Shown here: positions 9,691-50,814 of the stretch, piece by piece | Layout of the letters: each line of letters begins with the position of its first letter | Numbering within the stretch: the first letter of the stretch is position 1 | Assembly: GCA_964646765.1 (NCBI GenBank) | Contig: CAZYIA010000002.1 | Location: forward strand, 99,467 to 163,466 | Length of the DNA stretch: 64,000 nucleotides | Source: an uncultured Candidatus Saccharibacteria bacterium | GTDB lineage: Bacteria > Patescibacteriota > Minisyncoccia > Phycocordibacterales > UBA9973 | Direction: 5' to 3' | Notes under the pieces: generated by a model | Seen by the model: only the letters and a program-made list of their open reading frames with translations | Database searches by the model: none | What the model was told of the DNA's origin: nothing | Position numbers and translations under genes: made by a program

Positions 9691-9748
9691 ATAAAAATAG
9701 TATACACCGCTATTGCACAGCAAGGATGGGTATAGTTTAATAACCCAT

Positions 9749-10666: not shown

Positions 10667-10705
10667 TTTTTTGCCACCGATCAAATTGTTTGGTTTAATT
10701 AGAAA

Positions 10706-16741: not shown

Positions 16742-16900
16742 GTCGCAACTCCTTACAGGAGCAGTACACCTTTTGAGATATTTTTGTTCGTAAAACTCCA
16801 AAACTATCTCAAAAGGTCTTGCACTCCTCTAAGTATTCAGAGTTCACTCATCAGCGCCTCGCATCTAAAGCAATTTATATTGATTTTCCAAAATCTATTT

Positions 16901-16928
16901 CTCCACACAAAAACCGCCGTTCATGGCG
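16901..16928 (+). terminator. Rho-independent terminator after rpsL-rpsG
   Basis: The hairpin aaaaaccgccgttcatggcggttttt is followed by a T-run. Confidence 0.5.
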
Positions 16929-16950
16929 GTTTTTGCTATACTGGCAGCAT

Positions 16951-18243
16951 ATGCATCACCCTACGCGGTTGAAAGTTCTCATTGGAACTCTTGTTCTTAT
17001 TTCGATATACGCAGTATCTCTCTTTGCGCTTGCTGCCGTTACCTACGTAACTCCAGGAACTGTTCAAGATCCAGCTGGCGCACCTGGAAGCTATACCGTT
17101 GCTCCTGTTTCAATTGGGGAAACAATAGGGAACTCTCCCGTTCCGACAGGCGCTTTGTATGTAGATGGCAATGGCCTTTTGGCTACGGACGCCGGATTTA
17201 CTCATATTCCCGTACTTGTTGATCAACCAAACCAAACAGTTGCTAATCTAGCTATTTCATCAATTGCCAATACTGTTGATTCAACAACCGGGGTAACCAA
17301 TGTTGGCTTTGAGGGGGGATTAGTTATCAACGATAACTTTGATCATTCAGGAAATGGTGGAAGTTTGATTGGAACAGTAAATGGGGCTTTTCTCTCGAGT
17401 GCTGCCACAATTAATAAACTCATTGGCAACCTAAGTATTTCAGGAGGATATATTGGTGGTACAGGAACGATTACTGATGCTATTGGAGTAGCTTCGAATA
17501 TTATTAATGTTGGCAGTACAGTAACGAATGGTTACTTGTTCTACGGACAGAGTATTGGCTCAACAAACAAATATGGTGTCTATATTGATCTTGATGACAC
17601 GATAAATGTTCTCCGTGAACTTCAGCTCCGCCAAGATAGTCCGCTTAAGTGGTACGACGGCGACAGCTCAAATTACGTTGCTTTCAAGGCACCGAATGTT
17701 GTTGCTTCTGATCTTACTTGGGTGCTTCCTTCAGTTGAGGGAACCGATGGCCAAGTGCTTACTTGGCATACTGGCGGACTTTCGTGGGATACGCCGGCAG
17801 GTGGTGGCGGTGGGGGAGGAGAAACTGTAACCACTGTTAAACTAAGTCTCTCGCAATCTGATATTTTAGCTCTCGGAACAAAGGTAGAAGTTGTTCCAGC
17901 TCCTGGTCCTGGTAAAGCAATTCAAATTCTTAATATCGTAGGCACAGTAAATTTTGGAACTACGGCATATGATACTAATACCCAAATGGTTGGTTTCGAA
18001 GGAACCGATCCAAGTAATGGTATTTTTAGCTCCATAAACCACCTAAATGCTACCAGCTCAAAAACGATACTTTTTAACGCCAACGGTTTTGGTGGACCGA
18101 GTTCGTATAAAGCTGTTGTAGAGAATTCTCCATTTTATATTCAAGCAGGAAGTAGCGGTCCAGGAGGATTTACTGGAGGCAACCCAGCTAATGGAGATAG
18201 TACTATTGATTTGTATGTAACTTATACAACGATCAACCTCTAA
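16951..18243 (+). CDS. Membrane-anchored surface protein, family member A (N-terminal transmembrane anchor, conserved TYVTPGTVQDPAGAPGSYTV box, beta-rich repeats, poly-Gly hinge, C-terminal beta domain)
   Basis: The start was moved to MHHPTRLKVLIGTLVLISIYAVSLFALAA. It is paralogous to 18256..19464 and to the N-terminus of 52088..54724. Shared boxes are NVLRELQLRQDSPLKWYDGDSSNYVAFKAP and LTWHTGGLSWDTPAGGGGGGG. Confidence 0.55.
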   Translation: MHHPTRLKVLIGTLVLISIYAVSLFALAAVTYVTPGTVQDPAGAPGSYTVAPVSIGETIGNSPVPTGALYVDGNGLLATDAGFTHIPVLVDQPNQTVANLAISSIANTVDSTTGVTNVGFEGGLVINDNFDHSGNGGSLIGTVNGAFLSSAATINKLIGNLSISGGYIGGTGTITDAIGVASNIINVGSTVTNGYLFYGQSIGSTNKYGVYIDLDDTINVLRELQLRQDSPLKWYDGDSSNYVAFKAPNVVASDLTWVLPSVEGTDGQVLTWHTGGLSWDTPAGGGGGGGETVTTVKLSLSQSDILALGTKVEVVPAPGPGKAIQILNIVGTVNFGTTAYDTNTQMVGFEGTDPSNGIFSSINHLNATSSKTILFNANGFGGPSSYKAVVENSPFYIQAGSSGPGGFTGGNPANGDSTIDLYVTYTTINL

Positions 18244-18255
18244 CACTTTCATCGT

Positions 18256-19464
18256 ATGTCTATGTCTCTTCAACGAAAAAAAATTCTCCTCGGTTCATTT
18301 ATTTTTATTTCACTCTATGGGGCCGCGCTTACGTATGCAGCGATGACTTATGTTGCTCCAAGTACCGTCCAAGATCCTGTCGGTGCCCCAGGTACTTACA
18401 CAGTTGGTTTTGCTACAGCACCAAATGAGGTTCTCTATACCAATAGTTCAAACCAGCTTGCCTCTGATGCGGGGTTTACTCGTGTTCCAACAATGGTTGA
18501 TTTACCCGATCAATCAATTGGAAATAAAACTCTTACCACAATGCAGAACACGGCTAATACGAATGGTATTGCAAACGTTGGGTCAAGCTCGGTTCTCTTA
18601 ATAAATGACAGTTTTGATCACCTAAATGCGTATACTATTGGGTTAGCAGGTGAAGCAGTGCAAATGAGTAGTGGTACCATCGATAAGCTTGTTGGTCTTG
18701 GCGGCGTATCGATAAACAATGGTTCTGGTGTTGTAACACAGGCAATGGGAACGGCATCGGTGGTGGTTAACTCTGGTAGCGGTTCTATCACCAATGGCTA
18801 CGGATTTTTCTCGAACAAAATTGATGGTACAAATAAGTACGGTATTTATGTCGATGTTGACGACACTACGAATGTTCTTCGTGAACTTCAGTTGCACGAC
18901 GAAAGCCCGCTCAAATTATTTGATAAAGACAGTTCGAACTTTATTGCACTCAAGTCTCCATCAGTTCTCTTAACTGATACGACATATACACTTCCGCTTG
19001 CTGATGGTTCTTCTGGTCAATTTTTGAAAACGGACGGGGCAGGTAACCTTTCGTGGGATACGCCGGCAGGTGGTGGAGGGAGTAGCGACATTCAAACGGC
19101 AACCATTCACGTTAGTTCCGCAGAAATATTAGCACTCAACACTTCTCCTGTAGAACTTTTACCTGCTCCGGGAGCAGGTAAGGCTATTGATTTAGTATCA
19201 CTTGTCGTTAGACAGAACTTCGTTACAACTCAATATGATGGAGGATTCATGGCTATCTTCCCGAGTCTTTACTTTGGTGTAGGTAATATCAGCGACAACA
19301 TTAGTGGTACTCAGCTTGATTTTACTTCTTCGCGTATTACTAAAATGACTATGAACGGCCTCATGGTAGAGAATGAGCCTCTGTATCTTGGAACAAGTGC
19401 CAATCCAACCAATGGTGACGGCACCCTCGATTTCTATATAACCTATCGAATTATCGATTTGTAA
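18256..19464 (+). CDS. Membrane-anchored surface protein, family member B (paralog of 16951..18243)
   Basis: MSLQRKKILLGSFIFISLYGAALTYAAMTYVAPSTVQDPVGAPGTYTV, NVLRELQLHDESPLKLFDKDSSNFIALKSP and GNLSWDTPAGGGGS match the upstream gene in both order and spacing. The C-terminus ends TLDFYITYRIIDL, against IDLYVTYTTINL in the paralog. Confidence 0.55.
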   Translation: MSMSLQRKKILLGSFIFISLYGAALTYAAMTYVAPSTVQDPVGAPGTYTVGFATAPNEVLYTNSSNQLASDAGFTRVPTMVDLPDQSIGNKTLTTMQNTANTNGIANVGSSSVLLINDSFDHLNAYTIGLAGEAVQMSSGTIDKLVGLGGVSINNGSGVVTQAMGTASVVVNSGSGSITNGYGFFSNKIDGTNKYGIYVDVDDTTNVLRELQLHDESPLKLFDKDSSNFIALKSPSVLLTDTTYTLPLADGSSGQFLKTDGAGNLSWDTPAGGGGSSDIQTATIHVSSAEILALNTSPVELLPAPGAGKAIDLVSLVVRQNFVTTQYDGGFMAIFPSLYFGVGNISDNISGTQLDFTSSRITKMTMNGLMVENEPLYLGTSANPTNGDGTLDFYITYRIIDL

Positions 19465-21943: not shown

Positions 21944-24574
21944 ATGAGGAAATTTCTTCTCTGCATGCTGGTAGCTCTAGGTAGTTACCACATGTTTGCT
22001 CAAACCACTTTCTCCACGTCCTTCAACAGCGGGGTTCAATTTATCTGTTCACAGCAGGTAAACTTTGAAATCGCTGAAGCAGGCATTACGGCTTCCGTTT
22101 CGGAAGACTTACAACCAAACACGGTGTATTTTCACCTGAATCCTTCCGTAACAGGAATAATTACCAATGTCACTATATGGCAAGGTGGGGTTCAGTATGG
22201 TCCTACGGTTAATCCGTTTGGGGCGATGCAGGTAGCTATTCAGGGTTCGCCCGGCATACCAGCAGGAACTTCGGAAATTCTTACGTTCAATGCAGATGTT
22301 ATTGGCAATTCTGGCGACATATTCAGCCTAACAATTGACTCAATTCGTTGCATTGGTCTAACTACCGGAACGGCCGTTACTCTTCCTGCAAATTTTTCCG
22401 GAAAAACATTCATTATTCAAAGTTGCCCGGCGCTTATCGCGGATTTCAGTTTGAGTAAACATGAGTTTTGCTACGGTGAAATTATAGCAATAACAAATCA
22501 TTCTATTGCTCCAGGTAATGCCGAATATCAATGGGAATTTGGTTGGAACTCACAGCCGCCTAATATTATTGGTGATACTTCAGTTTTCCCGAATACATTT
22601 ACCGTTCAGTTCTATCAAACAGGAACATACAATGTTGATCTTTGGGTAACCAATCATACTACCGGCCAATCAAGCCACCACGCCGAAACTGTTCAAGTAC
22701 GCCCGAATCCATCTACAACATCAATTACCGCAAGCGGATTACTGGGCTGCAATGGAGCGACCGAATTAACACTTACAGCAAATACCCTTGGCGGTATTAA
22801 CACATACACCTGGATGCAAGGAACATGGGGTGGTCCATATGACACACTTGCTGTGAATGGAGATTCCACTCTTATGGTTACCACGCCGGGAGAGTATTTC
22901 GTTGTTCCTACAAATGTGTATGGTTGCTCACAACCGTATCCGCAACCCTACAATGTAAGTTATGTTCAAAATCCAAGTGTGGAATTGTACGTAACGAATT
23001 TGCCGGGAACATGGATTCAAATACCACAGGTACTACATGATACTGCTTATGCGTGCGAATTTAGTCTTTCCCAACTACAACTTGGAGTAAATGCTTGGGT
23101 TCCTATGACCGGCTCCCAAGGACTATTCTATGAGTGGAACGATAGTAGCCATGCCGCTCAGTTTCATCCACTTTCCGGTTCCGGAAATTCGGAGTGGTAT
23201 TATGTTTCAGTTACCAATACAAATGGTTGCACTACAGTGGATTCTCTGTACTTAGATGTTGTTCATCCAACAGCGCCCACTATTACTGCATTAGGCCCAA
23301 CTACTTTCTGCGAAGGTGACCATGTATCTTTATTAGCCAGTGGTTCTCCAGGATTACAATACTACTGGAACTACGGTGCTCCTGGAGATAGCGTGTCGCT
23401 GTTCTGGAATCCCGGACCTATCGTTGCGTTTACCATTGATGCCTATGGTTGCAGAGCCCAATCAGATACCGTGTTTATTACCATATTGCCGGTGCCACAA
23501 AAACCAACAATATTAGTGAACGGTTGCAATCTTGTTTCTGATGCTGTTTCAAATAACACCTGGTTTTATGGAACACAGCAACTCTCTTACACTGGAAGTG
23601 TTATTACTCCTGATTCATCAGGAATTTTTATCACCACAGTTACAGGAGTGAATGGTTGCTCAGCAACTTCTGACCCTGTTGCGTTCCAAGTACCACCACT
23701 TCCACAAATTACAGTTAGCGATAACAATTTTTGTGAAGGTGGTTCAAGTACGCTCGCTGTTGGACCTGGTACGGATTTTGTATGGTCTAACGGCCAAACA
23801 GGAAGCCCAATTACTGTTGAAACTTCAGGCACCTACAGCGCCACCGTTACAAATGGTACCTGCGTACGGGTTGCAACACCTGTTACTATCACGGTTTTTC
23901 CGAAACCGAACACTACTATTGATACCGTTGGCACAATGCAATTTTGCCAAGGTGGCTCAGTTACCTTGCTACTTCAGGAAAGTGGTTCTGTGTACGATTG
24001 GAACACAAATGAGGTTACACAAGAAATTAATGTAACCCAATCCGGTTCCTTCCGTGCTCACATCACTAATATATATGGCTGCGAAGCTTATACTGATGTA
24101 GTAACAGTGTTTGTACATCCATTACCTGATGTTGACCCGATTTTAGTAACTAACTGTTTACTGGCCGCGCCTTACGGAGCAGCGACCTATCAGTGGTTAC
24201 TGTTCGGAGATACTATTAGCGGAGCAACAAACCGCTTTTGTACTGCAGATACCAACGGCATCTACGAATGTGTTCTGACCAGCCAATTTGGTTGTGAGGC
24301 GTATTCGTTGCCAACTGTTGTAACTTGCGGAGCTACTACGGGTATTACAGAAATTACCGAAGATGCGCTTGCGTTATTCCCGAACCCCACAACTGGTTTG
24401 GTTACCGTAAAGCCTGATTTGACGCTTGAAGAAGAAGTTTTCATTTACTCCATTACCGGAGATATTGTTCGCAAGGAACCGAAAGGGACCAAAGCATTCG
24501 ATATTTCTAACCTGGCAGACGGTATGTATACCGTTCGCATAGGGAATTCGATTACAAAACTGGTGAAGCAGTAA
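21944..24574 (+). CDS. Large secreted multi-domain protein with a Bacteroidota-type signal peptide, tandem Cys-bracketed Ig-like repeats and a type IX secretion (Por) C-terminal sorting domain
   Basis: The signal peptide is MRKFLLCMLVALGSYHMFAQ. Repeats of the form FC.GG(S).L.....Y.W..G.T...I.V...G.Y...VT...GC occur at least five times. The C-terminal ~70 aa (LFPNPTTGLVTVKPDLTLEEEVFIYSITGDIVRKEPKGTKAFDISNLADGMYTVRIGNSITKLVKQ) fit the T9SS CTD pattern (PNP..., Y...G..V, D.S.L..G.Y.V.I). Confidence 0.7.
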   Translation: MRKFLLCMLVALGSYHMFAQTTFSTSFNSGVQFICSQQVNFEIAEAGITASVSEDLQPNTVYFHLNPSVTGIITNVTIWQGGVQYGPTVNPFGAMQVAIQGSPGIPAGTSEILTFNADVIGNSGDIFSLTIDSIRCIGLTTGTAVTLPANFSGKTFIIQSCPALIADFSLSKHEFCYGEIIAITNHSIAPGNAEYQWEFGWNSQPPNIIGDTSVFPNTFTVQFYQTGTYNVDLWVTNHTTGQSSHHAETVQVRPNPSTTSITASGLLGCNGATELTLTANTLGGINTYTWMQGTWGGPYDTLAVNGDSTLMVTTPGEYFVVPTNVYGCSQPYPQPYNVSYVQNPSVELYVTNLPGTWIQIPQVLHDTAYACEFSLSQLQLGVNAWVPMTGSQGLFYEWNDSSHAAQFHPLSGSGNSEWYYVSVTNTNGCTTVDSLYLDVVHPTAPTITALGPTTFCEGDHVSLLASGSPGLQYYWNYGAPGDSVSLFWNPGPIVAFTIDAYGCRAQSDTVFITILPVPQKPTILVNGCNLVSDAVSNNTWFYGTQQLSYTGSVITPDSSGIFITTVTGVNGCSATSDPVAFQVPPLPQITVSDNNFCEGGSSTLAVGPGTDFVWSNGQTGSPITVETSGTYSATVTNGTCVRVATPVTITVFPKPNTTIDTVGTMQFCQGGSVTLLLQESGSVYDWNTNEVTQEINVTQSGSFRAHITNIYGCEAYTDVVTVFVHPLPDVDPILVTNCLLAAPYGAATYQWLLFGDTISGATNRFCTADTNGIYECVLTSQFGCEAYSLPTVVTCGATTGITEITEDALALFPNPTTGLVTVKPDLTLEEEVFIYSITGDIVRKEPKGTKAFDISNLADGMYTVRIGNSITKLVKQ

Positions 24575-29000: not shown

Positions 29001-29011
29001 AGATTTTTACT

Positions 29012-29048
29012 CAAAAAGTCGAGAGGAGATACCCTCTCGACTTTTTGT
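29012..29048 (+). terminator. Rho-independent terminator after rplB
   Basis: The hairpin gtcgagagg…cctctcgac is followed by TTTTTG. It interrupts the S10 operon, where rpsS would normally follow. Confidence 0.6.
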
Positions 29049-29085
29049 ATTTATGTGGTATTGTAAAAATACAAAATTTACAACA

Positions 29086-29664
29086 ATGAAAAGAATATTT
29101 TTTGAAACCAACCGCATGCTTCGCGCATTAAAAAACATCTTGTTACTCGTAATACCCGAAACTATCGATGTAGAAGTTTTCAGTGAGCGTATTGAGAACC
29201 TACTTCGTTTTGTAATGGGTAGTTGGATTATTGCTCTTACCAGCTTCATTATTTTTACAGCCGGGGTGGAAACTGCATATTTTTACTATTTTCACTACCT
29301 GCAGGATATGAGCAAAGAAGCATACTTCTACTACCTCAAAGACCACCAAAATGGGGTAGTGGTTCGTATCGTTGTGTTTACAGCAATACTCTTGCTTTGC
29401 CAAAAGCGTTTTTTGAAAACCACTGAAGATGTAATAAAGACAAGAATATTACTTATTGCCACAGGTTTTTTCTGCGCCCCGCTACTGTTAACCTGGGATT
29501 TCCTTCAGCTTTGGGACCCGAGTAGTGCAATTGCCCTTGCCTTTGCGGTAAGAATAACGCTTTCGTGGGAGATTTTGAGTAAATGGGTAAACCCATTTAC
29601 TGCATCCATCAGGGATTTTATACACCAGAAAACTGCCAAAACTTGGCATGTTCGAAGTTCGTAA
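29086..29664 (+). CDS. Hypothetical integral membrane protein
   Basis: The listed ORF begins inside rplB. The likely start is MKRIFFETNRMLRALK (an alternative ATG at 29053). About four hydrophobic helices. Confidence 0.4.
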   Translation: MKRIFFETNRMLRALKNILLLVIPETIDVEVFSERIENLLRFVMGSWIIALTSFIIFTAGVETAYFYYFHYLQDMSKEAYFYYLKDHQNGVVVRIVVFTAILLLCQKRFLKTTEDVIKTRILLIATGFFCAPLLLTWDFLQLWDPSSAIALAFAVRITLSWEILSKWVNPFTASIRDFIHQKTAKTWHVRSS

Positions 29665-29715
29665 TACTAAACTGCTCACCCTCCGTCTCCGCGGAGGGTT
29701 TGCTATACTCCAGGG

Positions 29716-30108
29716 ATGGAATCACCAAAAGAAGAGGAAGCTTTTTCTGTAGTAAAGAGAGCACGAAGTTTTACCCATGCTTGGCGCGGATTATGCATTA
29801 TGGTTAAAACGCAGCATAATGCCTGGCTTCATGTATTAGCCGCACTGGTTGCAATTGCTCTTGGTGTATATTTTTCAATCTCTACAACTGAATGGTTTGC
29901 CCTCATTATTTCTATTGGTGTGGTATTAGTGGCTGAAGCGTTTAATACGGCAATTGAAGTTGATATCAATTTAACTTCACCGGAATATCACCCGTTTGCA
30001 CGCGACACCAAAGACATTGCCGCTGGGGCAGTGCTCATTTCAGCCCTCATGGCTCTCACTGTTGGCCTTATGATTTTTTTACCGAGAGTCCTTGAACTTC
30101 TTTCTTAA
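29716..30108 (+). CDS. dgkA: Diacylglycerol kinase / undecaprenol kinase family (DgkA)
   Basis: AWRGLCIMVKTQHNAWLHVLAALVAIALG and AEAFNTAIEVDINL carry the conserved E..NTAIE motif. Three transmembrane helices, about 130 aa. Confidence 0.7.
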   Translation: MESPKEEEAFSVVKRARSFTHAWRGLCIMVKTQHNAWLHVLAALVAIALGVYFSISTTEWFALIISIGVVLVAEAFNTAIEVDINLTSPEYHPFARDTKDIAAGAVLISALMALTVGLMIFLPRVLELLS

Positions 30109-32518
30109 AGAGAGTTCCTTTCTCTTCGAAATTTTTCCAAAGTGAATACGAAGGGGAAGCTGTTGAAAGGAGACAGATGCTTCCTTTTTTTGTGTGTTGG
30201 TAAGCAAAAGTCACGGCCGCTTTCATGCTTTTTGTTTTAAGAATGTTAAATCCTTTTTCGCTTTTTAAGATTCGCTTACCTGAATCAGGGAAGAGCACAA
30301 TATTTTGCACTTTATATTTTCGGAGTGTTTTTTCGAGCTCACGAAAATCATAGCCGCGGTCCGTACCGCCCAAGAAGATGGTATTAACGTTTTTCAGAGT
30401 CTTGATTGCTTCGCTAGTTGATTCTGGGGTAGTTGAAATAGCGTCGTCGTAGAATGTAACATCGCTATATGTGCCAACTTTCTCAAGTCGATGAGGAAGC
30501 GGCTTAAAGTTTTTGATCGCTTTTTTGATTGCTATGTCAGAAATACCAAAGTATTTTGCAATAGTAATTGCTGCTTTAATGTTACTCTCGTTATGTTTTC
30601 CTAAGAGTGGAATATCTTTTTCTCCAACTGGAATTTTTGCTGTAAATGGAGCAACAAAAGCCACGTCCCCTTTCTTCTGAAATTTGAATATGTTTTTCTT
30701 AGCCGCGTAGTATGCTTCCACTGATCCGTGATAGTTCATGTGTTCAGGGAACAAGTTAAGAAGTAGGGCAACGTTTGGTGATTGCTCAATGTCCTCAAGC
30801 ATGTAACTTGAAAGTTCAAGGACGAAAATCTCTTTCTGATTGCGCTTAGTAAGCACTGCTTCGAGCATTGGATTTCCAATATTCCCAAGCAGCCGCACTT
30901 TTTTCCCGCCCGCTTTGAGCATTTCATATACTAAGCTGGTAGTCGTGCTTTTACCTTTTGTTCCCGTAATGCCAACCGTTACGTTTTTATTTTCAGAGAA
31001 GAAAAGATTAGTTGCTGTAGTATAGGGAATAGTAATAAGGCGCTTTGGAATACCTGGAGTTTTAATGGCAAGGTCATAAGCGCTCTGTTTCTTTAAATAG
31101 TTTTTATCGCGGGTTTCGTCTAAAATGCCAACTTTCAGGTTTGGGTATTTTTGCTTGAGATACTTTTCAGTTACTTTTCCTTCTCGGCCGTAACCAACAA
31201 TTGCCACGTTTTTGATACTCAAGAATTTAAATGGAGTCGGAAGCGTTGGAGCGTGAGCAGTTTTAAAAACTTTCTCTACTAGAGCCTTCGGATTTTTAAC
31301 TTTTGATAAAAATGTTTTTACTACAACGGAGTCTTTCCAATTCTTTGAAGCTAAATAAAGCGCAGCCTGGGATTCTTCAAATGTACCTACACAATCAAAC
31401 GGCTTCATGGTGCCAAAGCCTAATATGTCTTTATAGAGTGGCAAAAGCGATTCATCCGCTAACAGATTCTTGCCGAACATGTCGATGACTTCTTGTTTTG
31501 GAAGCGTGGCGGCAAGCAGCAAAAAGACGAAGGCACATTTTGGGCACTCTCCGCACCACAGCGTATTTGGGCGATCTTTGTGAACTTTGAAGTTTCGGTT
31601 GCAGCTTGAGAAAAAAGGAAAGTATTTTGGATACTTGGCAAACATTTTCACAATTCGGATTTCATAAAATTGGCGAAGAACTGAAGTATAGATGATGTCA
31701 GGTGTAATAAATTTTCGAGTGTACTCTTGAAGTAGTGCTTCAAATTCTGCTGATTTGCTCCATTGGTGATTAATTGTTTCTCCTTTATAGGTTAAGTTCC
31801 CGAAGTTACTCGAGTGTTCATTTGCGACAGCGATATATTTAAAGCCGTAGAGTGCTGAAGTGAGAAGACCAAGAAAAGCAAACACGGCGGAAATTGGCAC
31901 GTGACCGTTATATGCACCATCGTGATTTTGAAAAATCTTCGGATCAAGTCTTCGGTGAATTTTTAGCGCTGGATAGCCAATAGTTTCAATAATGTGTTCT
32001 GAAATAAGATCAGCTCGCTCGGTTTCAACTAAGAATGATGTAACGGGAAAATCACGCAACAGTTCGGCTGCAACGATTGAATCTTTTCCGCCACCAATAC
32101 CAAGTAAGATGTCATTGCCGGTTGGAATTCGTACGGAAGTAGTGCCAGTTTTTGTAAAAGGGAATTTGGCGATATTTTTTGGATTAATATTATTTCGGTA
32201 TGAAAATTCACCGAGACCTTTTCGATATACTGTATTCCAAAATTCCGCCTGCTCTTTAGAGAGAGAGTAGGGAACCGTAATTTTCTTCGGGCAATACAGT
32301 TTGTAGTAACTGATACCTAAAATAAGGTGAAGCGGCTCTAAAAAGTGGCCTAGCTCTTCCTTCGAAAGTTTCCGCGGAGCTTTTGGCAAGGTAATGGTTT
32401 CGGTAAAAATAAGTGGTTCTCGATTTGAAAAAGCGATTTCGTAAGAAAACTTGATTTCTAGGCTGTTTTTAGGGAATTCGTAGCCGAGAAAGTTAAAACT
32501 GTTCGCGCGCGGAGTCAT
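30068..32518 (-). CDS. murD: Fusion protein: N-terminal PP-loop (adenine-nucleotide alpha-hydrolase-like) domain with a CxxC motif, joined to a complete UDP-N-acetylmuramoyl-L-alanine–D/L-glutamate ligase (MurD-type)
   Basis: The N-terminal half has LLGIGGGKDSIVAAELL (SGGxDS-type PP-loop) and WCGECPKCAFVFLL. The C-terminal half has VAIVGYGREG, the Mur ligase P-loop GITGTKGKSTTTSLV, the central domain, and the Mur ligase C-terminal domain (HNESNIKAAITIA; FYDDAISTTPEST). Confidence 0.65.
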   Translation of the reverse strand: MTPRANSFNFLGYEFPKNSLEIKFSYEIAFSNREPLIFTETITLPKAPRKLSKEELGHFLEPLHLILGISYYKLYCPKKITVPYSLSKEQAEFWNTVYRKGLGEFSYRNNINPKNIAKFPFTKTGTTSVRIPTGNDILLGIGGGKDSIVAAELLRDFPVTSFLVETERADLISEHIIETIGYPALKIHRRLDPKIFQNHDGAYNGHVPISAVFAFLGLLTSALYGFKYIAVANEHSSNFGNLTYKGETINHQWSKSAEFEALLQEYTRKFITPDIIYTSVLRQFYEIRIVKMFAKYPKYFPFFSSCNRNFKVHKDRPNTLWCGECPKCAFVFLLLAATLPKQEVIDMFGKNLLADESLLPLYKDILGFGTMKPFDCVGTFEESQAALYLASKNWKDSVVVKTFLSKVKNPKALVEKVFKTAHAPTLPTPFKFLSIKNVAIVGYGREGKVTEKYLKQKYPNLKVGILDETRDKNYLKKQSAYDLAIKTPGIPKRLITIPYTTATNLFFSENKNVTVGITGTKGKSTTTSLVYEMLKAGGKKVRLLGNIGNPMLEAVLTKRNQKEIFVLELSSYMLEDIEQSPNVALLLNLFPEHMNYHGSVEAYYAAKKNIFKFQKKGDVAFVAPFTAKIPVGEKDIPLLGKHNESNIKAAITIAKYFGISDIAIKKAIKNFKPLPHRLEKVGTYSDVTFYDDAISTTPESTSEAIKTLKNVNTIFLGGTDRGYDFRELEKTLRKYKVQNIVLFPDSGKRILKSEKGFNILKTKSMKAAVTFAYQHTKKGSICLLSTASPSYSLWKNFEEKGTLFKKEVQGLSVKKS

Positions 32519-32581
32519 GTTGAACCTACTATACTCGCTGTTCGCTTTATCGCCAAACCTGAGTTACTATAGCGAATATCT

Positions 32582-33475
32582 ATGGCACTAGGTTTCCGTG
32601 AAAAACTAAAAGCACGTCAGGAAGAAATCCGAGGCGTACTTTGTGTTGGACTCGACCCACTCCCAGAAAAATTGCCGTCCTCTCTCTCAACCGGCTCACA
32701 TCCTTCACAAACTGCTCACGATATTACGGAGTGGATGAAGGCTATTGTGGACGCTACCGCTCCATACGCCACCATGTTTAAGCCACAGAAAGCTCACTGG
32801 GAGGCATTTGTTGGTGGCGACTATGCGCTTCAAGAAGTGATTACCTACATTCATAAACGCTATCCAGGTATTGTGGTTTTTGAAGACTGTAAACGTGGAG
32901 ATATTGGTCGCACTCAAGAACGATATCGTATGAGTGTCTTTGAATTTGACGGGGCTGATGGCGCTAACTTTTCTCCATACATGGGCCGCGAGTGTATGGA
33001 ATATTTCGTTGATCAAAATCATAAAGAGCGCTCAATTGTTGGACTCTGTTATACGAGTAATCCTTCAGCGCGCGAGATCCAAAATCAAAAATTAGAAAGC
33101 GGAGAATATCTCTGGGAATTTATTGCTAAGCGTACACTTGCGTGGGCAGACGAACTCGGAGTAACCGAAAATGCTGGTCTTGTGATGGCTGCTGCATATG
33201 AAGAAGAAAAGGGATCCGGTAAGATCAAAACTGATCATCTCACTCGTTGTCGCCAAATTGTTGGCGACAAATTCTGGTTCTTAATTCCAGGTGTTGGAAC
33301 CCAAGGTGGTTTTGCTTATGAAACTGTTCAAGCTTCGTTTGCTGGTTTCGGTTCCATTGCGGTGAATTCTTCAAGCGATATCAACTTTGCTTCAAGTGGT
33401 CCTGACTTTGCCGACGCTGCTGCTCAAAAAGCAAAGGAGCTCCATCTAGAGCTCCAGGCTGCATTACCAAACTAG
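32582..33475 (+). CDS. pyrF: Orotidine 5'-phosphate decarboxylase, type 2
   Basis: LCVGLDP near the N-terminus, a length of about 295 aa and KRGDIGRT are typical of the long-form PyrF. Confidence 0.7.
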   Translation: MALGFREKLKARQEEIRGVLCVGLDPLPEKLPSSLSTGSHPSQTAHDITEWMKAIVDATAPYATMFKPQKAHWEAFVGGDYALQEVITYIHKRYPGIVVFEDCKRGDIGRTQERYRMSVFEFDGADGANFSPYMGRECMEYFVDQNHKERSIVGLCYTSNPSAREIQNQKLESGEYLWEFIAKRTLAWADELGVTENAGLVMAAAYEEEKGSGKIKTDHLTRCRQIVGDKFWFLIPGVGTQGGFAYETVQASFAGFGSIAVNSSSDINFASSGPDFADAAAQKAKELHLELQAALPN

Positions 33476-34248
33476 TTTTTTGCCATTGCTTCGCGAAGCG
33501 GCGTCCAGTTATCCTTTGGTTTCCAAATGATATTTCCGGCTTCGATATCGGCTTGTACGGCCGTGTCGTCTTGGCGAAATTCAGGAATAGGGAAGGCAAG
33601 AAGAGCAATAACCTTAAGGGTTATATCGTTTTCACTGTAGATATCGGTCACTTTCGAAGAACGATTCAAAATATCAGTTACGGCAACCGGCACGCCACCT
33701 TTTTCGGTAATGGCAGCAATCGATTTTCCAATAGTTGAGAAGTTAAAAGAAACATCTTCAGAAATAATTACTTTGTCGCCTGGTTCAATGCGATGACGGA
33801 AGAATCCCATCTTCGTTTCTTCGCGCTCTCCGATAGCTGCGGCCTTGGTTACTTTCTTTTCAATGATGGCAAAACGCGTGCCGAGTTCAGCAGCTAAAAA
33901 ATTTCCAATGCCAATGCCGCCCATTTGTGGTCCTGCCACAACATACTGTGCGGCGTGTGTTTCAATATCTGGAATTGCCTCCCGAACTTTTTGAGCAATC
34001 AGTTTTCCGATATATGAAAGAATAGTTGGATACTGTTCAATTTGCGCGCAGTTGATGTAGGTTTCACCAACCCACTGTTTCATTTCACCGTTATCTTCAT
34101 ATGTTCCGGCATAGCCAACTAATGGACCAAGACGCTTTCCGCTCACATCTTTCGGCACGGTGTACATTGCGCCACACGCTTTCAAAATTGCCACCGGGTC
34201 GCCTGGGTTTTTTTCAATGATGGTTTGAAGTTCGTTGGGCGAGAGCAT
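33472..34248 (-). CDS. pyrE: Phosphoribosyltransferase-domain protein, probably orotate phosphoribosyltransferase
   Basis: The PRPP-binding motif is KVIISEDVSFNFSTIGKSI (acidic-hydrophobic followed by a T/G-rich loop). It is convergent with and overlaps pyrF by 4 nt. Confidence 0.55.
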   Translation of the reverse strand: MLSPNELQTIIEKNPGDPVAILKACGAMYTVPKDVSGKRLGPLVGYAGTYEDNGEMKQWVGETYINCAQIEQYPTILSYIGKLIAQKVREAIPDIETHAAQYVVAGPQMGGIGIGNFLAAELGTRFAIIEKKVTKAAAIGEREETKMGFFRHRIEPGDKVIISEDVSFNFSTIGKSIAAITEKGGVPVAVTDILNRSSKVTDIYSENDITLKVIALLAFPIPEFRQDDTAVQADIEAGNIIWKPKDNWTPLREAMAKN

Positions 34249-34307
34249 AGATTTCTACAGGAAACGGTAGCACAGGAGCGGAGTCGGTGCAATTTAGAAG
34301 TCTATAT

Positions 34308-34335
34308 TTGACAATGTTAGACAATCTGCTAATAT
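34308..34335 (+). promoter_or_regulatory. Candidate sigma70-type promoter for rpsS and downstream ribosomal-protein genes (TTGACA, 16 nt, TAATAT)
   Basis: atttgacaatgttagacaatctgctaatatagcc lies about 40 nt upstream of the rpsS start. Confidence 0.45.
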
Positions 34336-34373
34336 AGCCACCACTGGCTCTTTGGAGCCCTTTTATTTACGCC

Positions 34374-38062: not shown

Positions 38063-38542
38063 ATGAACACTGCAGCTCCAAAAATTTTGGGCGAGGACTT
38101 TAACCTTGCCGATGTAACCAATTTCTTCACTACTAACAATATGGCTATCGGCAATGATATCCGTACATTGTTAGGGAATATCGCTCGTTCCCCGGAGATT
38201 TATACCAAACCGGACACTGACGCCTTCAATCATTTCCTCTCTAAACCCGTTCAATCGCATGAGCAGGTATTGGGAGAACTTACTGATTGCGAAAAGGTGT
38301 TAGCTATCGGTTCTGTATATGGAACCAGTAACATCGAGCCGCTGCGTAAATTTTTGCGCAAAAATGATTCCAGCCACCCTGACTATTTTGAAAAGGAAAA
38401 AGAGTGTCTGCTGATTAAGCCCCGCCAGGAGCTTTTGAAAGGACACCTGATTACCTCAATTGCTGACCGGTTTAAAGGTCAGATTCAGGGACGCCCGATT
38501 GAAATCCGTGAAGGCTGGCAAGTTGTTGTGCTGCCTCATTAA
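38063..38542 (+). CDS. Hypothetical protein (159 aa) inserted in the spc operon
   Basis: The ORF is clean and followed by a 13-bp-stem hairpin (agccccgcaatac…gtatttgcggggct). I noticed more CTG (Leu) and CCG (Pro) codons than in neighbouring genes. Confidence 0.4.
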   Translation: MNTAAPKILGEDFNLADVTNFFTTNNMAIGNDIRTLLGNIARSPEIYTKPDTDAFNHFLSKPVQSHEQVLGELTDCEKVLAIGSVYGTSNIEPLRKFLRKNDSSHPDYFEKEKECLLIKPRQELLKGHLITSIADRFKGQIQGRPIEIREGWQVVVLPH

Positions 38543-38635
38543 CAAACGGTTACCGTTAAAAAAACAAGCCCCGCAATACCTTAAAAGTATTTGCGGGGCT
38601 AGTTTATTTATGGGGAGACATGCTATTGTTCCTCC

Positions 38636-39244
38636 ATGCAGAAAAAGGAACGTCTTGGTTTTAATATTGTTTTGCTTGGGCAAATTGCCGCTGGAAAAGA
38701 AACACAGGCGGCACTTCTTATGGAAAAATACGCTCTCCATCCTGTTGAATCAGGAAAGTACTGGCGTACGATGATGAAGGCTAAAACTAAAGAAGGGGAA
38801 TGGCTCCGTCGTACAACCGCCAAAGGACTGCCGGCTCCAGTATCACTGATGAAAAAATTCCTTGTTGAACGTATTAACAAAAAACCAAAAAATAAAGACC
38901 TTCTCTTTATTGGTAACCCACGATTGAAGCCGGAAGCCCAGCTTTTAAAAAAGTTGTTAGCAGCAAAGAAACAAGATTTCTTTGCGCTCTATATCTCACT
39001 TCCTGATAAGGAAATATATAATCGATCGCTCAAGCGAAAAGAAGGTGCCGGTAAGGCAATTTACAAAGTGCTTGATGAAAAGCACCTTATTGCTGCGCGT
39101 ATTAAATGGCATAAAGACCAGGTTGGTAAGACCGTGGCCTACTTTGATTCTCTCGGTAAATTAAAAAAAATTAACGGCAAACAAAGCATTGAAAAGGTGG
39201 CTGCTGATATTGAAAAAGCTATCGCTCAAGCTCGAAAAGCCTAA
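38636..39244 (+). CDS. Adenylate-kinase-like nucleoside-monophosphate kinase paralog with a variant P-loop (GKETQ instead of GKGTQ)
   Basis: The protein has FNIVLLGQIAAGKETQAALLMEKY, and its length and LID-like region match the adk family. The canonical adk is at 43325..43921. Confidence 0.5.
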   Translation: MQKKERLGFNIVLLGQIAAGKETQAALLMEKYALHPVESGKYWRTMMKAKTKEGEWLRRTTAKGLPAPVSLMKKFLVERINKKPKNKDLLFIGNPRLKPEAQLLKKLLAAKKQDFFALYISLPDKEIYNRSLKRKEGAGKAIYKVLDEKHLIAARIKWHKDQVGKTVAYFDSLGKLKKINGKQSIEKVAADIEKAIAQARKA

Positions 39245-41991: not shown

Positions 41992-43266
41992 ATGAACTCA
42001 CTTATTCAAAAGATAAAGACAGTTTTCACGGATGCTTCGATTCGTCGTCGTGTTATCGTGGTACTTCTTTCCCTCGTTGTCTTCCGACTGCTTGCGTCGA
42101 TTCCAGTTCCTGGTATTGATGCAAATCGTTTGGCAGCATTCCTCGCTAATAACCAGTTTCTCGGTATCTTAAACATCTTCTCAGGTGGTGGACTTTCAAA
42201 CCTTTCGGTGATCATGCTCGGTGTTGGTCCGTACATTACGGCTTCCATCGTGCTTCAACTCCTCACGATTATGGTGCCATCACTTAAGCGTCTCTACCAA
42301 GAAGAAGGTGAAGCTGGCCGCAAGAAATTTGCCCAGTACTCACGTCTTCTTACAGTACCGCTTGCTGCTGTTCAAGGATTTTCCCTCATGACCATTCTTG
42401 AACGACAGGGAATTCTGGTTAGCCCAGATCTCTTTCACAAGTTTGTAACCCTCGCGGTTATCATTGGGGGCTCACTACTCCTTATGTGGATTGGAGAACT
42501 TGCTACTGAATTTGGTATTGCAAACGGTGTCTCGCTTATTATCTTTGCTGGTATCGTTGCTCGTCTTCCTCGTGAAGTTGGACAACTTCTCTTTACCTTC
42601 GATGCTTCGCAGATTCCGCAGTACATCGTATTCCTTTTGGTTGCTGCTCTCCTTATTCTTGGAGTGGTTATCGTTACTGAAGCGGAACGTCCAATTCCAG
42701 TAACGTATGCTCGCCGAGTTACGGCAACAGGACGCGCAACAGGTGGTGTCTCAACATACCTTCCAATTCGCGTGAACCAGGCTGGTGTGATGCCAATCAT
42801 CTTTGCGCTTTCACTCCTCCTCATTCCGCAGCTTCTTGGAACCCTTCTGTCGAATAATGCGCATGCATCTCTCCAAGCAATTGGTCATACACTCGCACTA
42901 TTCACTCAGAATACTTGGGGCTATCTTGTTGCCTACTTCGTTCTCGTGTTTGTCTTTACCTACTTCTATACAGCGATTACTTTCGAACCACATCAGCTCG
43001 CTGAAAATCTTCAGAAAGGTGGTGCGTTCGTTCCAGGTATTCGCCCAGGTAACGATACCGAGCAGTACGTTGGCAACATTGTTTCTCGCATTACCTTTAT
43101 TGGTGCGCTCTTCCTCGGTGTTATTGCGATCTTGCCACTTCTCATGCAGAAGTTAACTGGCATCACCGCAATTGCAGTCGGTGGCACAGCGCTCCTCATC
43201 GTAGTGTCTGTTGTGCTTGATTTCTTGAAACGAATCGACGCTCAGCTTGCGATGCGCGAGTACTAA
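41992..43266 (+). CDS. secY: Preprotein translocase subunit SecY
   Basis: Ten transmembrane helices are present, and the protein has GIDANRLAAFL, FSGGGLSNLSVIMLGVGPYITASIVLQLL and IPGIRPG. Confidence 0.92.
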   Translation: MNSLIQKIKTVFTDASIRRRVIVVLLSLVVFRLLASIPVPGIDANRLAAFLANNQFLGILNIFSGGGLSNLSVIMLGVGPYITASIVLQLLTIMVPSLKRLYQEEGEAGRKKFAQYSRLLTVPLAAVQGFSLMTILERQGILVSPDLFHKFVTLAVIIGGSLLLMWIGELATEFGIANGVSLIIFAGIVARLPREVGQLLFTFDASQIPQYIVFLLVAALLILGVVIVTEAERPIPVTYARRVTATGRATGGVSTYLPIRVNQAGVMPIIFALSLLLIPQLLGTLLSNNAHASLQAIGHTLALFTQNTWGYLVAYFVLVFVFTYFYTAITFEPHQLAENLQKGGAFVPGIRPGNDTEQYVGNIVSRITFIGALFLGVIAILPLLMQKLTGITAIAVGGTALLIVVSVVLDFLKRIDAQLAMREY

Positions 43267-43288
43267 ATTCTTCTCGAAAGGATTAAAA

Positions 43289-43316
43289 ACAGCCTGCTTT
43301 CGCAGGCTGTTTTTGT
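43289..43316 (+). terminator. Rho-independent terminator between secY and adk
   Basis: aaacagcctgctttcgcaggctgttttt. Confidence 0.55.
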
Positions 43317-43324
43317 GTGTTAGG

Positions 43325-43921
43325 ATGGCTCGTATGAATCCTAAAACCTATGTATTTTTCGGTAATGTTGGTGCCGGAAAGGGAACCCAGATTGAACGCC
43401 TCCAGAAATACCTTAAGGAAAAAACTGGCCAAGATACAGCATACGCGTATCCAGGCGGAGAGTTTCGGAAACTCATTGGTGGAACAGGTTATACCTCGTC
43501 GTTGGTAAAAGATATTTTGAGCGCTGGGAAATTAGTACCGATGTTCCTGGTTTCGTGGGTTATTGGCAATGTTCTAGTTGAAAAACTTACCAGCCCTGAC
43601 ATGCATGTAATTTTTGACGGTTTCCCACGATCACTCGATCAGGTAATTGCTTTTGAATCGACGCTCGATTTGTATAAGCGTACAAATGTTGAACTTGTCT
43701 ATATCGAAGTGCCGAAAGAGGAAGTGATTAAACGCATGAAGCTACGCGGTCGTTTTGATGACACCGATGAAGGTATTGCTCAGCGTTTTTCGGAGTATGA
43801 AAACAATGTACTTCCTGCATTAAATCTTTTGAAAGAAAAGGGATACCCAGTACATACGATTCATGGAGCTCAGAGTATTGAAGAAGTATTTGCTGATCTC
43901 GTTAAAGCGCTCAATGTGTAA
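43325..43921 (+). CDS. adk: Adenylate kinase
   Basis: MARMNPKTYVFFGNVGAGKGTQ carries the canonical GxxGxGKGTQ P-loop. The start was moved from the listed TTG at 43247 to the ATG after the terminator. Canonical position after secY. Confidence 0.8.
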   Translation: MARMNPKTYVFFGNVGAGKGTQIERLQKYLKEKTGQDTAYAYPGGEFRKLIGGTGYTSSLVKDILSAGKLVPMFLVSWVIGNVLVEKLTSPDMHVIFDGFPRSLDQVIAFESTLDLYKRTNVELVYIEVPKEEVIKRMKLRGRFDDTDEGIAQRFSEYENNVLPALNLLKEKGYPVHTIHGAQSIEEVFADLVKALNV

Positions 43922-48183: not shown

Positions 48184-48762
48184 ATGACTATCTTACCGTT
48201 GCCTCTCATCCTCGGTTCCTCTTCGGAGTTTCGGGCGCTTGAACTTCGAAATGCCGGGTACGATTTTACTGTGCGCACTGCTGATATCGACGAGAAAAAA
48301 AATCGGCATACTGATTTGCGAAAATTACCCCTTTTTATTGCTGAGGCAAAGGCTGAAGCTCTTCTCCCGCAGATCCAAGAACCGTCAATTCTACTCACGG
48401 CTGATGTGGTCGTTATCGCCAATGGCGAGCTCCGTGAAAAACCTATCGATGAAACGCAAGCGCGCACATGGTTCCACTCATATAGTAGCGGTGTGCCAGC
48501 AGTCATTTATACTGGCCTTGTCGTAGTGAACACTAAAACCGGAAAACGCGCCGAAGGTATTGATGAGTGTGTCGTGCATTGGAATCATATTCCTGAAAAT
48601 GCAGTAGAGAAAATTATTGCCGATGGTACGATTTTCAAAACCGCTGGCGGATTCACAAATGAAATTGCTCTTGAATTTGGACGGCAACCACTTCCGTCAG
48701 GCGATCGCCGTCGCGGCATCCCGATCTATCTTTTTGAAGAATTAGTGCAGAAAGTCTTGTAG
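48184..48762 (+). CDS. maf: Maf-family nucleoside triphosphate pyrophosphatase
   Basis: LILGSSSEFRALEL matches the Maf N-terminal signature (LILAS.SPRR..LL). The length is about 190 aa. Confidence 0.7.
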   Translation: MTILPLPLILGSSSEFRALELRNAGYDFTVRTADIDEKKNRHTDLRKLPLFIAEAKAEALLPQIQEPSILLTADVVVIANGELREKPIDETQARTWFHSYSSGVPAVIYTGLVVVNTKTGKRAEGIDECVVHWNHIPENAVEKIIADGTIFKTAGGFTNEIALEFGRQPLPSGDRRRGIPIYLFEELVQKVL

Positions 48763-48764
48763 CT

Positions 48765-49349
48765 ATGCATGAAGAAATTGAAATAAAGTTTTTGGAGGTA
48801 GATATTCCAACACTTGAAGAAAAATTTCTTTCCTATGGTGCTACCCGGGTGGGAGAGACTCTTTCACGTATCACTAATTTTGATTTTCCCGACTACCGCT
48901 TAAAAAGCGATCATGCGTGGGTACGGCTTCGAACAGAGTTTGGAAAGACAACTCTTACCTATAAGCAGCGAATTGGTGTAGTTTCTAGCGATACATCACT
49001 GCGTGACGAAGGAATGCGCGAAATTGAAATCACTGTTTCTGATTTTGAGACAATGCGCAAATTACTTCACGCTATTGGCATGATTGAGAAATTTTCCCAG
49101 GAACGGAAAAGAATTCATTTTGAAAAAGACGACCTGTCTTTTGACATTGACACGTGGCCTCTCATACCGCCGTACTTGGAAATTGAAGGAAACAGCTGGG
49201 AGAATGTCGAAAAAGCGGCTTCTGATCTCGGCTTTGATTACGATAGCCATCTTCGCTGTTCGGCAGGTAATATCCTTACCAAATACGGATATCCTGACCA
49301 TGATTATTCCATTTTTACCTTCAGTGAACAGATAAAAAAGAATTTGTAA
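48765..49349 (+). CDS. CYTH-domain (triphosphate tunnel metalloenzyme, CyaB/ThTPase-like) protein 1
   Basis: EIEIKFL is the N-terminal CYTH ExExK motif. Alternating acidic beta-strand residues (RLR, ExE) and YLEIEG are present. Confidence 0.65.
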   Translation: MHEEIEIKFLEVDIPTLEEKFLSYGATRVGETLSRITNFDFPDYRLKSDHAWVRLRTEFGKTTLTYKQRIGVVSSDTSLRDEGMREIEITVSDFETMRKLLHAIGMIEKFSQERKRIHFEKDDLSFDIDTWPLIPPYLEIEGNSWENVEKAASDLGFDYDSHLRCSAGNILTKYGYPDHDYSIFTFSEQIKKNL

Positions 49350-49422
49350 AACCACCAAATTTTTGCTAGTATCTGGCTGTATTTTAGTAGTCCTATAGAG
49401 CGAGAAATCGCATTTTTTATTT

Positions 49423-50007
49423 ATGGCAGTACACCCGAAAGAGGAGCGCACATACGTGATGATCAAACCGGATGGCGTTCGCAAAGGCCTTATTGGAGAG
49501 GTCATCAAGCGTTTCGAACAGCGCGATCTTAAAATTGTCGCTCTTGAGATGTTTACCCCGACTCGCGACCAGGTTCACAACCATTATCCGCAGGATGAAA
49601 AGTGGATTCGTCGCCTCGGTGAAAAAACCGCTGCTACTTATGAAAAGTACGGCTATGACTTGAACGAACTCGGTACATCCGATCTTCTTGAGATTGGTGG
49701 CATGGTTCGCGAATGGCTCCTTGATTTCATGACCAGCGCTCCGATGGTTCGCATGGTGGTGCAGGGACTCCACGCTGTAGACGTTGTCCGAAAAATTGCA
49801 GGCCCAACGATGCCGTATCTCGCTGAAATGGGAACGATCCGCGGAGATTACTCAATTGACTCTCCAGCGCTTGCAAACAAAGAAAAGCGCGCAGTTGCAA
49901 ACATCATTCACGCTTCAGAAACTGCTGAAGAAGCAGCACATGAAATCGAATACTGGTTCGGCAAAAGCCCGATTCACCCGTACAAGCGTTTCGGTGTAGA
50001 CGAATAA
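49423..50007 (+). CDS. ndk: Nucleoside diphosphate kinase (long form, 194 aa)
   Basis: RTYVMIKPDGVRKGLIGEVIKRFEQRDLKIVALEM... NIIHASETAEEAAHEIEYWF carries the NxxHGSD-like active-site His region. Confidence 0.8.
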   Translation: MAVHPKEERTYVMIKPDGVRKGLIGEVIKRFEQRDLKIVALEMFTPTRDQVHNHYPQDEKWIRRLGEKTAATYEKYGYDLNELGTSDLLEIGGMVREWLLDFMTSAPMVRMVVQGLHAVDVVRKIAGPTMPYLAEMGTIRGDYSIDSPALANKEKRAVANIIHASETAEEAAHEIEYWFGKSPIHPYKRFGVDE

Positions 50008-50019
50008 AAAGAAAAGTCA

Positions 50020-50128
50020 CAAACTGCTTACTAAGGAAAACGGAATATTTTTCTGCGGAAAAATTTCCTCCGACTCGCACCCAGTGCTCCGTCGAGTTTC
50101 CTTAGTAAGCAGTTTCTTTTTTTGAGAG
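50020..50128 (+). terminator. Long-stem hairpin (about 19 bp, about 55-nt loop) plus T-run after ndk
   Basis: caaactgcttactaaggaaa … tttccttagtaagcagttt is followed by cttttttttg. Confidence 0.45.
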
Positions 50129-50129
50129 G

Positions 50130-50813: not shown

Positions 50814-50814
50814 T

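Follow-up and report, generated by a model that had tools for sequence, protein, structure and literature searches.

A single gene of an uncultured Candidatus Saccharibacteria bacterium very probably encodes a bifunctional enzyme for both steps of the MurD2/MurL route, in which L-glutamate (L-Glu) is added to UDP-N-acetylmuramoyl-L-alanine (UDP-MurNAc-L-Ala) and is then converted to D-glutamate (D-Glu). The gene lies in a 64,000-nucleotide stretch of contig CAZYIA010000002.1 (assembly GCA_964646765.1), hereafter the window, whose coordinates are used throughout. It is one uninterrupted open reading frame (ORF) of 816 amino acids (aa) in the ORF listing, starting with ATG and ending with TAA, at 30068..32518 on the minus strand. 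NCBIfam divides the protein in two, with NF041275 (MurL) covering aa 6-408 and TIGR01087 (murD) starting at aa 438. We infer the two activities from homology and fold, from conserved motifs and the residues that determine specificity, and from conserved linkage and fusion. In this gene a known two-enzyme pathway takes a fused form; the system is not of a new kind, and what is new is the presence of this variant in a lineage where the MurD2/MurL route had not been discussed.

An earlier note on this DNA had suggested a PP-loop domain fused to MurD, possibly a MurL-like epimerase joined to MurD2 and indicating an L-Glu route to peptidoglycan. Both the MurL homology and the MurD2-type (L-Glu) determinants of the ligase half support that suggestion. 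The C-terminal half is a MurD-type ligase, as the note had said (Mur_ligase_M, E 3.8e-24; TIGR01087, 262.5 bits), and the N-terminal half is MurL-like (NF041275, E 5.6e-106; MurL_N and MurL_epimerase_C on close homologues), and not a tRNA modifier or any other unrelated PP-loop enzyme. The SGGxDS-type PP-loop and the CxxC pair that it had pointed out are present as GGGKDS and WCGECPKC, and both are conserved in the family. In the protein they occur as GIGGGKDS (aa 140-147) and WCGECPKC (aa 321-328), and the ligase half carries GITGTKGKSTTTSLV (aa 516-530). The note had also seen no murI in the window. Pfam scans agree, finding neither Asp_Glu_race (murI) nor Aminotran_4 (dat) among the non-overlapping ORFs of at least 150 aa in the 64-kb window, a set outside which lie a 181-aa ORF at 59842-60387 (minus strand), the ribosomal genes, and antisense ORFs within annotated genes. 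A phmmer search found no second Mur ligase or MurL paralogue elsewhere in the window.

The MurD2/MurL pathway has been known since 2017. Its published users include Dyella, Frateuria, Rhodanobacter and Micromonospora, with validation in vitro for Micromonospora and Salinispora, and the MurL protein XOO_1319 is an ATP-dependent, AMP-forming, unidirectional L-to-D epimerase (PMC8788868). Publications so far describe the route as limited to a rather small number of genera. We found no description in the literature of MurL in the candidate phyla radiation (CPR), of a MurL–MurD fusion, or of a QueC-like fold for MurL. One apparent literature match linking MurL with Patescibacteria was merely the string "Mur_ligase". 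The MurL and MurD domain families themselves are already in Pfam, NCBIfam and UniRef.

Glutamate specificity of the ligase half

The ligase half is complete, with all three Mur ligase domains, and its TIGR01087 score exceeds the canonical murD cut-off of 211.95, which explains why such proteins are usually annotated as D-Glu ligases. It shares with canonical MurD (E. coli, PDB 1e0d/2uag; TIGR01087) the fold and the residues that bind ATP and UDP-MurNAc-L-Ala, and the alignment keeps equivalents of all five catalytic residues K115, N138, E157, H183 and K198. The E. coli sequence used here was checked against PDB 1e0d_A (100% identity, residues 1-437), and the numbering of the literature can therefore be used. 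Unlike canonical MurD, the window protein has D182 replaced by E, K319 by I, K348 by R, A414 by P and L416 by Y, and has an epimerase fused to it.

These replacements fall on published determinants of chirality. In MurD2 of X. oryzae, Glu197, Arg358, Pro433 and Phe435 take the place of E. coli MurD Asp182, Lys348, Ala414 and Leu416; the E197D/R358K double mutant of MurD2 switched to D-Glu, and the K319T variant of E. coli MurD accepted L-Glu (review). The window ligase resembles MurD2 in its three-domain architecture, its catalytic residues and its Glu/Arg/Pro/aromatic determinants, with Ile at the E. coli K319 position. It differs in being the C-terminal part of a fusion and in having Tyr, as in Micromonospora, where Xanthomonas has Phe.

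We summarised the determinants as a signature of seven positions (E. coli MurD 182, 183, 319, 348, 414, 415 and 416). E. coli MurD reads DHKKASL and the window protein EHIRPSY. The MurL-linked ligases of Rhodanobacter, Dyella and Frateuria read EHIRPSF, those of Micromonospora and Plantactinospora EHLRPSY, and EHIRPSY is the commonest signature among MurL-linked ligases (42/77). Judged by these residues, the ligase half carries the published determinants for L-Glu (MurD2), not those for D-Glu. Position 319 is Ile, Leu or Phe in all alignable MurL-linked ligases (74/77; loci L003-L082), and canonical MurD has a conserved Lys319 in a DSKATN motif. Position 319 is thus a fifth signature position, in agreement with the published K319T result.

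The best-surviving alternative is that the ligase half is an ordinary D-Glu-specific MurD, that the MurL-like domain proof-reads or salvages mis-incorporated L-Glu, and that D-Glu comes from a racemase elsewhere. A ligase half scoring above the TIGR01087 equivalog cut-off and most similar overall to canonical Gram-positive MurD would fit this, as would the Arg that streptococcal MurD likewise has at the 348 position (review; also a solved structure) and the active MurI reported for a Saccharibacterium. The solved D-Glu ligases read T/K/R/A/W (S. agalactiae, 3lk7), D/K/K/A/L (8dp2) and D/K/K/A/F (7sir) at positions 182/319/348/414/416. E592, I694 and P789 of the window protein are unlike every solved D-Glu ligase examined, and they match the MurL-linked ligases, including those of the validated genera. 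The window protein also has the very Glu and Arg whose exchange for Asp and Lys converts X. oryzae MurD2 to D-Glu use, and a repair reaction needed only rarely would scarcely call for an obligate 1:1 fusion. We consider an ordinary MurD unlikely.

The MurL half as a PP-loop enzyme

The NF041275 match scores 354.7 bits and places aa 6-408 on profile positions 8-413 of 447. In tblastn the MurL half is 35-38% identical over aa 1-407/430 to the MurL proteins of Rhodanobacter, Dyella, Frateuria and Micromonospora. The Pfam names (PF26299 MurL_N and PF26298 MurL_epimerase_C) were taken from precomputed domains on homologues. The likeness to MurL of the XOO_1319 type extends to full-length homology, the invariant residues, the coupling to a MurD2-type ligase and the order murL then murD2. 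Known MurL, however, is a separate protein of about 450 aa, whereas the window MurL is covalently fused to the ligase; the two are only about 35-38% identical, the window score falls below the Xanthomonadales equivalog cut-off, and the host belongs to Patescibacteria/CPR, a group unnamed in the published distribution.

Conservation across 151 diverse members is concentrated in a small set of positions. Those conserved at 90-100% are G142-G-G-K-D-S147, H206, E234, N250-H251-Q252, K255, E260, R282, C306, W321-C322-x-x-C325-x-K327-C328 and K372-P-x-x-C376-V-G378. At the family-invariant positions, which include GGGKDS, H206, E234, H251-Q252, K255, E260, R282, the four cysteines of the Cys4 motif, KPxxCVG and E382, the window protein is identical to the MurLs of Xanthomonadales and Micromonosporaceae in 22 of 22 cases.

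MurL has been described in reviews from the Dairi group as one that "lacks known conserved domains". The predicted structure of the MurL half has the fold of the PP-loop ATP pyrophosphatase superfamily. In the AlphaFold2 (AF2) model, GGGKDS (aa 142-147) follows beta-strand 137-140 of a Rossmann-like core, in the manner of an SGGxDS-type PP-loop. When a MurL family profile was compared with the PDB, GGGKDS aligned to the SGGKDS PP-loop of TtuA (E 9.5e-5), and all 14 PDB matches were PP-loop enzymes. A single-sequence PDB search with the MurL half gave just a spurious glycerol dehydrogenase (E 0.06), with no MurL structure detectable. No Pfam or NCBIfam match to QueC appeared at E <=1, and the profile met QueC (3bl5) only at E 0.77.

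The PP-loop call of the earlier note was therefore correct, and the models refine it: MurL is predicted to be a QueC-like PP-loop enzyme. The relationship to QueC (PDB 3bl5) and to Cap9 (PDB 9nto), a QueC-like protein of cyclic-oligonucleotide-based antiphage signalling systems (CBASS), is structural only, at 14-16% identity. MurL differs from both in an extra N-terminal domain of about 125 aa, a candidate binder of the UDP-MurNAc part of the substrate, and in a helical C-terminal extension with the invariant KPxxCVG. The Cys4 motif is QueC-like and, by analogy, probably a structural Zn site. The cysteine of KPxxCVG is family-specific, and Cys376 is a candidate general acid/base in alpha-proton exchange. 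The chemistry differs too, QueC forming an amide and a nitrile and MurL epimerising the C-terminus of a peptide.

A PP-loop enzyme could in principle adenylate the Glu alpha-carboxylate and then amidate it with ammonia to iso-glutamine, with no epimerisation. Its closest structural relatives (QueC, NAD synthetase and asparagine-synthetase-like enzymes) use an adenylate for amide formation; QueC makes both amide and nitrile, and MurT/GatD amidate lipid II. The 22 invariant residues are nevertheless those of MurLs from genera with demonstrated epimerisation, and the homology to MurL far exceeds that to amidating PP-loop enzymes, which show no Pfam match and PDB E values of about 1e-4 or weaker. 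An L-iso-glutamine product would also leave the stem peptide without a D residue. We regard amidation as very improbable and the MurL half as a putative epimerase.

Recurrence and linkage of the fusion

The fusion is common in Patescibacteria. The 120 best homologues listed are 62-79% identical to the window protein, all have 767-861 aa, and all share the fused architecture, with PF26299, PF26298 and Mur_ligase_M in every one and Mur_ligase_C in most. Their named sources are Patescibacteria/CPR (Pacebacteria, Uhrbacteria, Moranbacteria and Parcubacteria), and the best database match is 79% identical. The database names among them are "Mur ligase family protein", "hypothetical protein" and "UDP-N-acetylmuramoylalanine-D-glutamate ligase", and only one record, from the Joint Genome Institute (JGI), names the fusion as an epimerase.

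The MurL half alone has a wider range. As a query it retrieved 2,621 cluster representatives (50% identity) at E <=1e-3, 1,207 of them at <=1e-30. The best 150 of these 2,621 include 124 standalone proteins (380-520 aa) and 19 fusions (>=760 aa), and one standalone representative, from Roizmanbacteria, carries the UniRef name of MurL epimerase. With one genome taken per species, at least 598 species-representative genomes hold a confirmed MurL relative, and the counts of loci, linkage and tree groups that follow concern the best 80 of these. Among the 80, the CPR groups are Moraniibacteriota, Uhrbacteria, Staskawiczbacteria, Roizmanbacteria, Levyibacteria, Woesebacteria, Taylorbacteria, Falkowbacteria, Peregrinibacteria, Peribacteria and Gracilibacteria. 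The others are Rhodanobacter, Dyella, Frateuria, Micromonospora and Plantactinospora, together with one Sericytochromatia genome, one Thermoanaerobaculia genome and some Alphaproteobacteria.

MurL is closely tied to a MurD-like ligase in these genomes. It is fused to one in 24/80 loci, always in the order MurL then MurD, and a separate MurD-like gene adjoins it in 52/80, directly downstream on the same strand in 49 of the 52; the remaining 4/80 loci are truncated. A fused or adjacent MurD-like gene is thus present in 76/80 loci, the ligases carrying the MurD2 signature. These results suggest that the route of adding L-Glu and then inverting it reaches far beyond the few genera that the literature names. 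In a neighbour-joining tree of the MurL domain (no support values), the window protein falls within a large clade of 21 species genomes, in all of which the genes are fused. Fusions also occur in two small groups, one of a single Falkowbacteria genome and one of two Peribacteria genomes; these groups are nested among lineages without the fusion, which suggests that the genes fused more than once.

The taxonomic labels of some of these genomes do not agree with the tree. The metagenome-assembled genomes (MAGs) at L007, L008, L017, L019, L022, L024, L027 and L060 are third-party assemblies labelled 'uncultured Gammaproteobacteria' or 'Saccharibacteria'; the MurLs of these eight loci nest in Parcubacteria-type CPR clades, so the labels are probably unreliable.

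The full-length AF2 model of the fusion is confident, with a predicted local distance difference test (pLDDT) score of 88.5 and a predicted template modelling (pTM) score of 0.83. In this model the junction is ordered, with pLDDT 94-97 over aa 410-440, and not a floppy linker. Together the confident model and the ordered junction suggest that the two enzymes form one fixed body and are not strung together like beads. Among homologues the sequence of the junction is conserved (consensus ...APTLPTPFRFLGI.NV...). Since murL and murD2 are separate neighbours in most lineages, with ends that often overlap, a sequencing or assembly frameshift could in principle have merged two adjacent genes, but this is hardly credible, because the 120 best homologues, which come from many independent samples, and 24 species genomes show the continuous architecture, the junction is conserved and modelled as ordered, and the same gene, of 815-816 aa, is present on the independent contigs of the closest relatives. 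An artefact, a canonical MurD and an amidating PP-loop enzyme were all considered, and each was rejected on the points against it.

Several points weigh against our assignment of a MurL-MurD2 fusion. By phmmer, the ligase half scores 175.7 bits against S. agalactiae MurD and 117-155 bits against Xanthomonadales MurD2. In overall sequence it does not resemble proteobacterial MurD2 more closely than Gram-positive MurD, and it is the five signature positions and the linkage, rather than global phylogeny, that carry the MurD2 assignment. The signature has exceptions, as 10/77 MurL-linked ligases have Asp, not Glu, at the 182 position; the chirality preference of these ten may differ. The Glu-binding loop (aa 788-795, nt ~30134-30157, with P789 and Y791) is the sole segment of the full-length model with pLDDT <50, perhaps because MurD domain 3 is mobile or because the fit is induced by the substrate. 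The MurL score lies below the NCBIfam equivalog cut-off of 700 bits; NF041275 is named for and tuned to Xanthomonadales, so the low score limits automatic naming and not homology. An active glutamate racemase was reported for Ca. Saccharimonas aalborgensis in a 2024 paper cited in PMC11974145, and as far as that citation goes, CPR lineages differ with respect to MurI. Finally, the CPR members of the fusion family are known from sequence alone, and their function is deduced from it.

Proposed mechanism

The residue signature suggests that the ligase half would act first, extending UDP-MurNAc-L-Ala by L-Glu with conversion of ATP to ADP and phosphate. The PP-loop half would then adenylate the alpha-carboxylate of the new C-terminal L-Glu, with a second ATP converted to AMP. 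For this step the fold and the motif are those seen here, and AMP formation is published for XOO_1319. QueC adenylates a carboxylate, which fits the published ATP use, AMP formation and L-to-D direction of MurL. Reviews have likewise proposed adenylation of the alpha-carboxylate, because the reaction uses one ATP, yields AMP and proceeds in the L-to-D direction only.

Adenylation would render the alpha-proton acidic. The proton may be lost directly, giving an enolate, or via an oxazolone formed with the preceding amide, and re-protonation would then occur on the opposite face. Candidates for the acid/base groups are Cys376, His206 and His251. Hydrolysis of the adenylate would free the D-Glu product for MurE, and the one-way direction would follow from selective adenylation of the L-epimer. 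The intermediate might be channelled between the two halves. As D-Glu would be made on the nucleotide substrate, the proposal is that the organism needs no free D-glutamate and no glutamate racemase. Such a route would plausibly suit a reduced genome.

Genomic context

The features of the fusion gene and of its convergent neighbour are collected in Table 1.

Table 1. Positions of the murL-murD2 fusion gene, its parts and its convergent neighbour in the window.
Feature	Coordinates	Strand	Basis or remark
MurL-MurD2 fusion, whole ORF	30068..32518	-	stop TAA at 30068-30070
MurL-like epimerase half, aa 1-430	31229..32518	-	NF041275 E 5.6e-106; AF2 pLDDT 91.7, pTM 0.91
N-terminal beta/alpha sub-domain, aa 1-125, corresponding to Pfam MurL_N	32144..32518	-	AF2 secondary structure; Pfam names on homologues
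PP-loop ATP-pyrophosphatase core, aa ~130-300	31619..32131	-	
PP-loop motif G142-G-G-K-D-S147, predicted to bind ATP alpha/beta-phosphates	32078..32095	-	94-100% conserved, 151 sequences
Cys4 motif C306...C322-x2-C325-x2-C328	31535..31603	-	94% conserved; CCCC in 80/81 genome-derived MurLs
Invariant K372-P-F-D-C376-V-G378	31385..31405	-	96-98% conserved; Cys in 79/81 genome-derived MurLs
Junction between the two enzymes, aa 409-437	31208..31294	-	full-length AF2; no in-frame Met aa 371-533
MurD2-type UDP-MurNAc-L-Ala:glutamate ligase half, aa 438-816	30071..31207	-	TIGR01087; Mur_ligase_M and Mur_ligase_C; PDB MurD matches
Mur ligase ATP-binding P-loop G519-T-K-G-K523-S-T (K523 = E. coli K115)	30944..30964	-	
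Glu592, chirality determinant (E. coli MurD Asp182 / X. oryzae MurD2 Glu197)	30743..30745	-	
Ile694 at the E. coli Lys319 position	30437..30439	-	
Arg721, chirality determinant (E. coli Lys348 / MurD2 Arg358)	30356..30358	-	
Pro789-Ser-Tyr791, Glu-binding loop (E. coli Ala414-Ser-Leu416 / MurD2 Pro433, Phe435)	30146..30154	-	
DgkA-family lipid kinase, convergent neighbour	29716..30108	+	PF01219 E 8.2e-33; same neighbour in closest relatives

The fusion lies in a 5.4-kb block (29001-34373) made up of an ORF for a membrane-like protein of 193 aa, dgkA, murL-murD2, pyrF and a phosphoribosyltransferase gene. Lying between rplB and rpsS, it breaks up the S10 ribosomal-protein operon, which is normally contiguous. 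The two closest metagenome relatives have the interruption as well, on independent contigs (L083/L084; P0001); it is absent from the other 80 MurL species loci, which have no neighbourhood in common. The DgkA-family neighbour may recycle the undecaprenol lipid carrier. The convergent dgkA and fusion genes overlap by 41 nt at their 3' ends (30068-30108), and a similar overlap is found on contig P0001. In another Patescibacteria genome the fusion is directly downstream of a GlmM-like gene; the GlmM-like gene of the window is at 60476-61825. Two adjacent PG_binding_1 proteins are encoded at 9713-12715, one of them fused to a Kelch beta-propeller, which suggests that the organism has a peptidoglycan wall.

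Inside the str operon, between rpsG and fusA, 16819-19464 holds two large ORFs, of 474 and 402 aa, that match nothing in Pfam. Between fusA and tuf, 21944-24574 encodes an 876-aa protein ending in a type IX secretion system (T9SS) C-terminal sorting domain (Por_Secre_tail, E 1.3e-9); such a domain would not be expected in a Patescibacteria-like genome, T9SS being a feature of Bacteroidota. The window has two genes of the adenylate-kinase family (38063-39244 and 43247-43921). One is inserted with a 159-aa ORF after rplE in the spc operon, an insertion common to the relative at L083, and the other follows secY, where it is usually found.

Three further regions deserve mention. A 912-aa protein at 45398-48136 has weak signatures of a VirD4/TraG-type coupling-protein ATPase (TrwB_AAD_bind and TraG-D_C). 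A tight cluster of small nucleotide-metabolism genes occupies 48184-51351 (Maf, CYTH, NDK, an HD-domain protein and a second CYTH). An 878-aa protein at 52088-54724 carries a Peptidase_S74 intramolecular chaperone domain, known from phage tail spikes and endosialidases.

Implications

The fusion is a natural "Rosetta stone", as sequence by itself confirms that MurL and MurD2 work together. The QueC-like PP-loop fold, the Cys4 motif and the invariant cysteine give a concrete handle on ATP-driven, one-way epimerisation, and a single-gene version of the pathway would be an easily handled tool for complementation, screens for inhibitors and structural studies.

Most records misname the fusion proteins as D-glutamate ligases or generic Mur ligases. 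With such annotations, metabolic reconstructions of CPR bacteria would either list the racemase as missing or conclude, wrongly, that D-Glu is required. It is tempting to speculate, with slightly less confidence than doubt, that the MurD2/MurL route, often in fused form, is the usual entry of D-Glu into peptidoglycan in large parts of Patescibacteria/CPR, with Cys376 as the residue that could invert the activated glutamate; this would contradict the view that the route belongs to few genera. The distribution seen here already widens the known pathway from a few genera of Proteobacteria and Actinobacteria to a large radiation whose members are mostly uncultivated.

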